A DNA stretch of 64,000 bases from Longimicrobiales bacterium. Its GTDB lineage: Bacteria; Gemmatimonadota; Gemmatimonadetes; Longimicrobiales; Gaopeijiaceae. The notes under the pieces were generated by a model that saw only the letters and a list, made by a program, of their open reading frames with translations, was not told the DNA's origin and made no database searches. The stretch lies in NCBI GenBank assembly GCA_963664435.2, contig CAXXKM010000002.1, positions 512,001 to 576,000 on the forward strand. The letters are read 5' to 3'. The translations under genes were made by a program, and so were the position numbers. The stretch's first letter is position 1; each line of letters starts with the position of its first letter. Of this stretch, positions 1 to 905 are shown piece after piece.

Positions 1-122
1 TAGGTTGGGGGGAATACCTTGTCTCCCGCGCCACCCGCGGGCTGAAGCGTCAGGCGTGAGCGGAGCGCGACGGCACCGCCGCTGACGGCCTCCAGCAGGG
101 CGGGGAAGGTGAGTTCGGTCAT
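1..122 (-). CDS. csb1: Type I-G (I-U) CRISPR-associated Cas7/Csb1 (GSU0053 family), N-terminal 40 codons; truncated by the window edge
   Basis: Manual translation from ATG at 122-120 gives MTELTFPALLEAVSGGAVALRSRLTLQPAGGAGDKVFPPT(Y). LQPAGG-x-GDKVFPPTY is the characteristic Csb1/Cas7g N-terminal motif as I recall it. SD GGAGGAG lies just upstream. Not in the ORF track. Confidence 0.85.
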   Translation of the reverse strand, partial: MTELTFPALLEAVSGGAVALRSRLTLQPAGGAGDKVFPPT

Positions 123-218
123 GCTGCTCCTCCGTAGGGTTGGCTGGACCCGCCGTTCACCGCAGATGGCGGACCAGAAAGGTATTGTGGTCTTGCCAAG
201 GGACACGGCTCACCGTGC

Positions 219-327
219 TGGAATGCGGCGGTGGGACTCGAACCCACAACCTGTCCGGGCGGTCTCTCCCGCAAGGGATCGACCATTCGTAGACCCGAAC
301 CGCTCTGTCCAAGTGAGCTACGCCACA
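219..327 (-). ncRNA. tRNA-like RNA with an expanded anticodon arm (possibly tRNA-Arg(UCU)-derived)
   Basis: Minus strand folds as: acceptor TGTGGCG/CGCCGCA; T8A9; D arm GCTC-ACTTGGACA-GAGC; anticodon stem GTTCG/CGGAC; variable region AGGTT; T arm GTGGG-TTCGAGT-CCCAC; then TTCCA. The anticodon loop holds 31 extra nt including the hairpin GGTC-GA-TCCC-TTGC-GGGA-GA-GACC. Confidence 0.85.
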
Positions 328-430
328 GTGCCGGAACCCGTGCGGGCCCCGGAACCCGTCCTCCGACGAATGGAGGCACCCCGCTGACGCACCAGCTTCA
401 ATGAGGCTGTGGATGATCACGAGTGTATTC
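328..430 (-). CRISPR. Degenerate single-spacer mini-array / crRNA-like RNA (pseudo-repeat, ~37-nt spacer, pseudo-repeat hairpin)
   Basis: 430-395 reads GAATACACTCGTGATCATCCACAGCCTCATTGAAGC, with a type I-G-like 3' end and 8-nt handle ATTGAAGC. Spacer spans 394 to ~358. A second repeat-like hairpin CCGGGGCCC-GCAC-GGGTTCCGG lies at 352-331. Confidence 0.75.
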
Positions 431-447
431 TGGTGAGTTAGAGGGGT
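428..447 (+). promoter_or_regulatory. Putative Cascade target site (TTC PAM plus partial protospacer) in an AT-rich, promoter-like region
   Basis: TTC (428-430) precedes TGGTGAGTTAGAGGGGT, versus guide TGGTGCGTCAGCGGGGT. A -10-like TACACT lies on the minus strand at 427-422. Confidence 0.65.
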
Positions 448-905
448 ATTTAAGAGGGCTAACCCATTCCTAACGGATATGCCCATCCAACGCAAGTCCC
501 CCATTCGGCAACCGCTGACCTCGGACCCTACGGCTCCGAGCAACACGCGATCATGGAGGGGCGCGCTTCACGACCAGGAGCGGCGGCATGCACGGGAGCG
601 GCGTCAACTGCGGACGGGCTGGCGAACGGACCAGCCGCGACCACCCCGTACACGGGGGCGACGAATTGTGCTGACGATGCTGCCTGTGCTCGAAGCACCG
701 GCGTGCGTGGAGGCCCTCTCCAGGCGCGTGGCGATCAGGAGCTCGCCGAGATCGACGTCCTGCGCCCAACCGTCGGTCGCCAATAATGCCAGCGCGGAGG
801 CAAGCGCTGCCAATTGAATGGCGGCTCGCCGACAACAGTGACAAAGAGATCCTGAAAGTGTCCGATCTTCCTGGATGGATGGTCGCCGTGGCTTTCGCCG
901 CTCCC

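Follow-up and report, generated by a model that had tools for sequence, protein, structure and literature searches.

Type I-G CRISPR systems have been described as recognising a TTN protospacer-adjacent motif (PAM), as leaving every sixth guide base unpaired in the effector and as processing their repeats by means of Csb2, which cleaves 4 nucleotides (nt) past the hairpin base and yields an 8-nt handle (10.1101/2022.08.08.503147). CreR-like elements have been listed for types I-U/I-G (Liu et al., 10.1101/2023.03.10.532045); here and below, statements on published systems refer to the accessible portions of the cited papers. The present analysis concerns a stretch of 64,000 nt from a Longimicrobiales bacterium (assembly GCA_963664435.2, contig CAXXKM010000002.1; G000:C2:512001-576000 in our numbering, hereafter the window), on the minus strand of which lies a type I-G cas operon that extends beyond the window's left edge. 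The leader of this operon carries a short cassette, in which a guide of a known kind is fused to a mimic of a transfer RNA (tRNA), the mimic being the unusual part. An earlier note on this DNA had put forward a candidate new system; for the guide this goes too far, as it is of the known CreR kind (10.1101/2023.03.10.532045), and a self-repressed promoter shared by toxin and antitoxin is likewise on record (PMC8501985).

The guide part of the cassette (minus strand throughout, unless stated otherwise) opens with a degenerate repeat, psiR1, at 395-430, which is identical to the 36-nt repeat of the operon's CRISPR array over the last 13 nt, as the earlier note had expected, and at 8 scattered positions. 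The 8-nt 5' handle (402-395) is retained, as in CreR elements, and the psiR1 hairpin is weak (-1.9 kcal/mol vs -16.4 for the array repeat). A pseudo-spacer of 38 nt follows at 357-394 (about 37 had been predicted), its length matching that of the array spacers (35-38 nt). Beyond it lies a second degenerate repeat, psiR2 (328-356), consisting of a 4-nt lead, a hairpin (352-331) and 3 nt, after which the tRNA-like RNA replaces the last 8 nt of the repeat. The hairpin, proposed earlier as repeat-like, is real: 4 nt precede it, as they do in the array repeat, and it stands a spacer length away on the 3' side, as in CreR elements, although it has 9 base pairs (bp) instead of 7 and the sequence likeness is modest.

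The target of this guide lies just upstream of the guide itself. On the plus strand, a TTC PAM (428-430) adjoins a protospacer (431-447) that the guide matches at 14 of 17 positions; of the mismatches, at guide positions 6, 9 and 12, two (6 and 12) fall on the unpaired sixth positions. Counting the 15 informative positions, 14 match, and no other site beside a TTN has two mismatches or fewer in the 4.5 Mb of host genome searched (96% complete, 68% GC). Within the 306-bp flank, a score of 14/15 was reached by none of 20,000 shuffled spacers; the 26 true array spacers, scored in the same way, lay between 5 and 9. The guide is thus very probably a self-regulator of the CreR/CreA type, binding its own upstream region.

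Directly fused to the guide, as had been noticed earlier, is a cloverleaf derived from tRNA-Arg(ACG) at 223-327, which is recognised both by its fold and by the Rfam tRNA model (RF00005; 38.8 bits, cut-off 29). All its stems are paired (acceptor 7 bp, D 4 bp, anticodon 5 bp, T 5 bp; 21 pairs), with the canonical 7/5 acceptor-T arrangement, a canonical D arm, conserved D and T loops and a variable loop of 5 nt. The cloverleaf is the minimum-energy fold, yet its share of the ensemble is 19%, and in the D and T arms the centroid folds differently; ARAGORN, run without intron search, calls no tRNA at 327-223. The closest host tRNA, among intron-free host calls, is tRNA-Arg(ACG), but since 5 of the 7 acceptor pairs differ from it on both sides with pairing kept, it is no decayed version of the host gene. 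The canonical 7-nt anticodon loop is replaced by a region of 38 nt (258-295), made up of a stem extension, an unpaired CTACGAA (292-286), which is an Arg-ACG-type loop, and a hairpin. The arm as a whole (253-300) folds with a z of -3.1, none of 200 shuffles being as good, and shuffles of the 38-nt region contain CTACGRA in 0.4% of cases and any Arg-type loop in 9%. A cloverleaf with so enlarged an arm would be unable to decode codons. Its genomic CCA (221-219) is shifted out of register by one nt, and 3 nt separate the psiR2 hairpin from its 5' end; because Csb2 cuts 4 nt past the hairpin base, the cloverleaf occupies the place of the repeat's cleavable tail.

Three other identities were considered for this RNA and rejected. 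An allo-tRNA does not fit the acceptor and T stems (7/5, not 8/4 or 9/3), and an amber-suppressor reading fails on the CTA of the loop, which is not within a 7-nt loop. Bacterial Y RNA has a Ro60/Rsr partner as a family feature; no such gene (PF05731) was found in the host genome, nor was there a Y RNA match in Rfam at E<=10.

Downstream of the cloverleaf, the cas leader (123-218) has a 6-bp hairpin (218-203) directly after the CCA and a Shine-Dalgarno (SD) sequence ahead of the ATG at 122; its overall fold is no better than that of shuffles (z 0.26). Both this SD sequence and the lack of a terminator-like site in 1-950 agree with the earlier note. The AT-rich, promoter-like region described there stands as a stretch of 45% GC at 395-480, but a scan of 1-950 found no sigma-70 consensus promoter; judged from its composition against the 68% GC of the genome, the stretch may nonetheless hold the promoter. 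A single transcript carrying the guide, the cloverleaf and the cas genes is plausible. A peptide toxin encoded across the cassette was discarded, as the 86-codon frame at 379-119 has no Pfam match and 1-nt insertions in relatives (at 378, 363 and 274) shift the frame.

Conservation was compared in 4 of the 24 sequencing runs listed, the relatives being known as difference counts and not as sequences. In run X9, csb1 and the cassette lie together on one 6.1-kb contig, which shows 56 differences over about 1,520 nt. In run X10 (labelled sponge metagenome), a contig over 224-448 has no gap and departs at 19 of 225 nt, and the csb1 pieces of this run, at similar depth, show 11-12% differences; positions 449-525 are unaligned and similarity returns at 526. 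The cloverleaf is thus kept in a relative whose csb1 DNA is 88-90% identical. The insertions listed for a second variant, at 274, 310 and 313, all fall in cloverleaf loops. So the guide, target and cloverleaf move together and are conserved like coding DNA. RNA runs X15 and X19 each yield a 223-nt contig over 225-444, which stops near the cloverleaf end; the figures are identical, and the two runs are probably one data set. They give a weak hint that a discrete guide-plus-cloverleaf RNA exists. As these runs were picked using this very stretch, their missing csb1 RNA cover was not used.

The operon itself is complete and of type I-G. The frame starting at 122 (1-122, minus strand), its first gene, is csb1/cas7g (TIGR02570, E 1.3e-21), as had been supposed, and the operon continues leftwards from G000:C2:512122 to 500680 with csb2, cas3g, cas8g, a second and shorter Csb2-like frame, cas4/cas1 and cas2, followed by a CRISPR array of 27 repeats (C2:498657-500585); the leftward extension suggested earlier thus recovered every component it named. 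The shorter Csb2-like frame, 3' of cas8g (L001:10540-11661, minus strand; G000:C2:504540-505661), corresponds to the C-terminal Cas6-like part (TIGR02165, E 2e-20) and could be a dedicated or a decayed RNA-processing subunit. Apart from these, an AAA-ATPase-like/PD-(D/E)XK gene (L001:8825-10285, plus strand) is inverted between the effector genes and cas4/cas1. The array has three duplicated spacer pairs, one of them with a difference near its end, and two substitutions in its terminal repeat. Past the array lies an 875-codon frame (L001:1089-3716, minus strand), the first half of which gives a match to PADLOC PDC-S01 and the second half a weak one to a NACHT antiphage protein, in keeping with a defence neighbourhood. 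The same genome holds a distant second cas7g (33% identity; G000:C3:1204747-1205850, locus L006); about 200 nt upstream of it, a stretch looks like a single I-G-type repeat whose tail is changed.

A second cassette was sought widely. The earlier expectation of its presence at related csb1 loci was borne out by the related sequences of runs X9 and X10, but not by the 24 closest csb1 loci (63-77% identity; 0/24 within 800 nt upstream, three loci having less than 450 nt) nor by 29 further cas7g loci of the phylum (0/29 within 1,500 nt upstream; drawn from 30 of 40 matches, with two weak ARAGORN calls far from cas7). None lies upstream of L003, L004 or L006 (the upstream region of L005 being incomplete). 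BLAST against 300 genomes of the order, scoring two candidates per genome, gave short tRNA-arm matches only; this tally includes the unpublished G170, G056 and G121, on which no positive claim rests. BLAST likewise found no second cassette in 18 genomes of the genus, in 151 + 151 other genomes or in plasmid and phage collections. Patterns for enlarged tRNAs found none in sets of 5, 23 and 107 genomes and chance matches only in sets of 201 (1), 168 (3) and 400 (5). In metagenomes, all 25 of 25 matches to a pattern joining the repeat end and the D arm were ordinary, partial or array-adjacent tRNAs. Among the 135 matches listed in viral contigs, none combined a self-target with an enlarged tRNA, and neither a cassette-specific pattern nor csb1 was found in these contigs. 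The metagenome and viral pattern searches recovered our own locus as a positive control; the patterns would miss a D-loop variant seen among the relatives, and the genome sets are samples. The cassette looks like a local invention and not a widespread system.

These searches turned up other elements. Three of the 24 closest loci (L008:9541, L021:9390 and L026 at about 9500) carry divergent CreR-like mini-arrays on the opposite strand upstream of csb1, with PAM-flanked self-matches of 15/15 in L008, 14/15 in L026 (with a weak handle) and 12/15 in L021. Their second repeats form hairpins and have no tRNA-like RNA; after the hairpin come a near-complete repeat tail in L008, a U-tract in L026 and other sequence in L021. 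In addition, 18 of the 93 distinct viral matches listed (117 loci) are class I-like cloverleaves with anticodon regions of 24-52 nt, several of them Arg-type. Viral contigs L228, L244, L298, L337 and others carry tRNA-shaped genes with 20-45 extra anticodon-loop nt, often hairpin-forming. Such enlarged viral genes are a recurring phage RNA class, for which the literature found holds no clear explanation. In L196:6001-6113 and L215:2172-2284, an ordinary tRNA-Arg gene lies 83 nt beyond the end of a CRISPR array and runs in the array's direction.

On the established anatomy, PAM-flanked self-match, fold and conservation in a relative, a mechanism can be proposed in which the transcript, its cuts and the repression are inferred. 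The tentatively favoured reading, which falls short of a probable one, is that the non-decoding tRNA serves as processing and stabilising punctuation within a self-repressed cas leader. A promoter in the AT-rich stretch would give one RNA comprising psiR1, the guide, the psiR2 hairpin, the cloverleaf, the leader and the cas genes. Csb2 would cut psiR1 to leave the 8-nt handle, by analogy with I-G biochemistry, and the guide, loaded on I-G Cascade, would very probably pair partially with 428-447 and damp its own transcription, leaving the DNA uncut. The 3' end of the guide would be set by RNase P at the 5' end of the cloverleaf, or by Csb2 one nt further, and would then fall just past the hairpin held by Csb2. 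The acceptor and T arms are the parts of a tRNA that RNase P reads, and the RNase P RNA is present in the host genome. A further cut at the 3' end of the cloverleaf would free a cas messenger RNA (mRNA) beginning with a hairpin, and the RNA downstream would be shielded. When engineered, tRNA-like elements do mature CRISPR RNAs (crRNAs) (PMC4326828).

Several points weigh against this reading. The structured 31-nt insertion in the anticodon arm and its Arg-type loop are superfluous for punctuation and stay unexplained, and Csb2 alone could end the guide. The absence of the cassette at the 24 close and 29 further loci indicates that I-G self-regulators do without a cloverleaf. Most of the psiR1 hairpin is lost, and Csb2 cleavage there is not assured. 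CreA of Halobacterium hubeiense needs every seed position from 1-5 and 7-11 (PMC8501985), a type I-B rule, and the mismatch at position 9 breaks such a perfect seed. The RNA contig, moreover, has a depth of 3, and DNA carry-over is possible.

Among the alternatives, the one that survives best, doubtful though it is, makes the cloverleaf a passenger relic: an ordinary CreR would lie beside tRNA-derived sequence from mobile DNA without any CRISPR role. The enlarged cloverleaves common among the viral matches listed offer a possible source, and the failure to find the cassette in a second lineage fits with rarity. A relic would, however, hardly be expected to keep all 21 of 21 stem pairs intact or to be conserved to the same degree as csb1, unlike the adjacent non-coding DNA. 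Furthermore, the cloverleaf begins within 1 nt of the Csb2 register and sits inside the leader instead of at an island edge, and none of the viral insertions resembles that of the cassette.

Unlikely, though nearly on a par with the relic, is a CreTA-like addiction module, whose self-repressed transcript would yield the guide and the cas mRNA and would also release a tRNA-Arg(ACG) mimic as a new class of RNA toxin. When Cascade is lost or blocked, the mimic would accumulate and tie up ArgRS, TadA (the A34 deaminase) or EF-Tu, starving CGN decoding. The logic is shared with creTA of H. hubeiense, in which one self-repressed promoter serves toxin and antitoxin (PMC8501985), and non-translating allo-tRNAs have been hypothesised to be linked to toxin-antitoxin systems (PMC7609411). 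The Arg-type D loop and the exposed CTACGAA loop are retained, and the structured insertion would prevent decoding. Among the genes counted, arginine is most often encoded by CGC, and the intron-free host calls include one tRNA-Arg(ACG) gene. Nevertheless, the region 480-123 has no SD-led or start-proximal tandem rare codons, the hallmark of CreT, and hence no mini-ORF (open reading frame) of that type. A cloverleaf would also be made along with every guide, and the mismatch in the seed points to leaky repression. The U73 and the lengthened arm presumably fit ArgRS poorly. The list of 5 changes in the RNA contig contains no T>C, the sign of A34 editing, and the distribution is very narrow.

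It is quite improbable that the cloverleaf works as a decoy or sensor induced in defence, which would be derepressed together with the cas genes under anti-CRISPR action and would soak up anticodon nucleases or other tRNA-binding proteins, or serve as a substrate of the extra Csb2-like protein. A stable tRNA fold with a non-decoding arm, the second Csb2-like frame after cas8g and the relief of CreR circuits by anti-CRISPR proteins (10.1101/2023.03.10.532045) would suit it, but the case is purely inferential. An intron-containing functional tRNA, in which removal of 31 nt after position 37 would give a UCU anticodon in register, is barely credible: an alternative pairing does leave 3 nt bulged at the 3' junction, as in a canonical 37/38 intron, and ARAGORN with intron search does call a tRNA here (as Glu), but splicing is unlikely because that conformer is 12.4 kcal/mol less stable, the spliced loop would begin G32-G33, and neither the tRNA splicing endonuclease (PF01974) nor RtcB (PF01139) was found in the 96% complete genome; in addition, the host already has a tRNA-Arg(TCT), and 31 nt is too short for a group I intron.

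If the punctuation reading is true, a natural tRNA fold matures a CRISPR-type guide, a device found in the literature searched only as engineering (icrRNA), and host tRNA processing is tied to cas self-regulation. If the toxin reading is true, a tRNA-mimic toxin, and with it a new RNA toxin class, joins the CRISPR addiction modules, and the locus would be the first CreTA-like module of type I-G found in the literature searched. Because the cassette measures about 230 nt and the predicted cut sites are sharp, a handful of ordinary experiments could tell the two readings apart. The rarity of the cassette limits its reach.

In comparison with known systems, the cassette stands closest to CreR (10.1101/2023.03.10.532045) and to mini-arrays (Shmakov et al., 10.1101/2023.03.03.530964), with which it shares two degenerate repeats, the 8-nt handle in psiR1, the 3' hairpin in psiR2 and a site at the cas operon, next to a PAM, that the guide matches in part. 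In contrast to these, the present guide has its place within the cas leader, is directed at the DNA immediately preceding it and continues into a tRNA-derived cloverleaf; a search of the two main texts for tRNA brought up no such fusion, though Figure S7 of Liu et al. or the mini-array tables of Shmakov et al. might hold one. More broadly, a natural guide fused to a tRNA mimic was not found in the literature searched, most subscription papers and bioRxiv supplements lying outside that search. The type I-G effector of Thioalkalivibrio sulfidiphilus has the same Csb1, Csb2, Cas8g and Cas3g, a 36-nt repeat, an 8-nt handle and a TTN PAM, but the accessible part of its description mentions no comparable leader cassette (10.1101/2022.08.08.503147). 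Arrays of tRNAs with variable spacers (PMC10910872) are a different arrangement. Allo-tRNAs and other non-canonical tRNAs (PMC7609411; PMC5389517) are likewise tRNA-shaped and in some cases unusable in translation; in contrast to the 8/4 or 9/3 of allo-tRNAs, the present RNA combines 7/5 with an enlarged anticodon arm and a CRISPR leader. CreTA of H. hubeiense and Haloarcula hispanica (PMC8501985) shares one self-repressed promoter for a guide and a second small structured RNA, a TTC PAM and seed pairing with the 6th and 12th positions free. CreT, however, is a mini-mRNA that ties up a rare tRNA and lies ahead of creA (PMC8501985), whereas the second RNA here is tRNA-shaped, follows the guide and has no such mini-ORF. 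Finally, in the Haloferax t-element icrRNA, a flanking tRNA-like structure sets the crRNA end through RNase P and tRNase Z (PMC4326828); that construct is engineered and archaeal, and the cassette described here would be its natural, bacterial counterpart, with the tRNA fold on the 3' side only.
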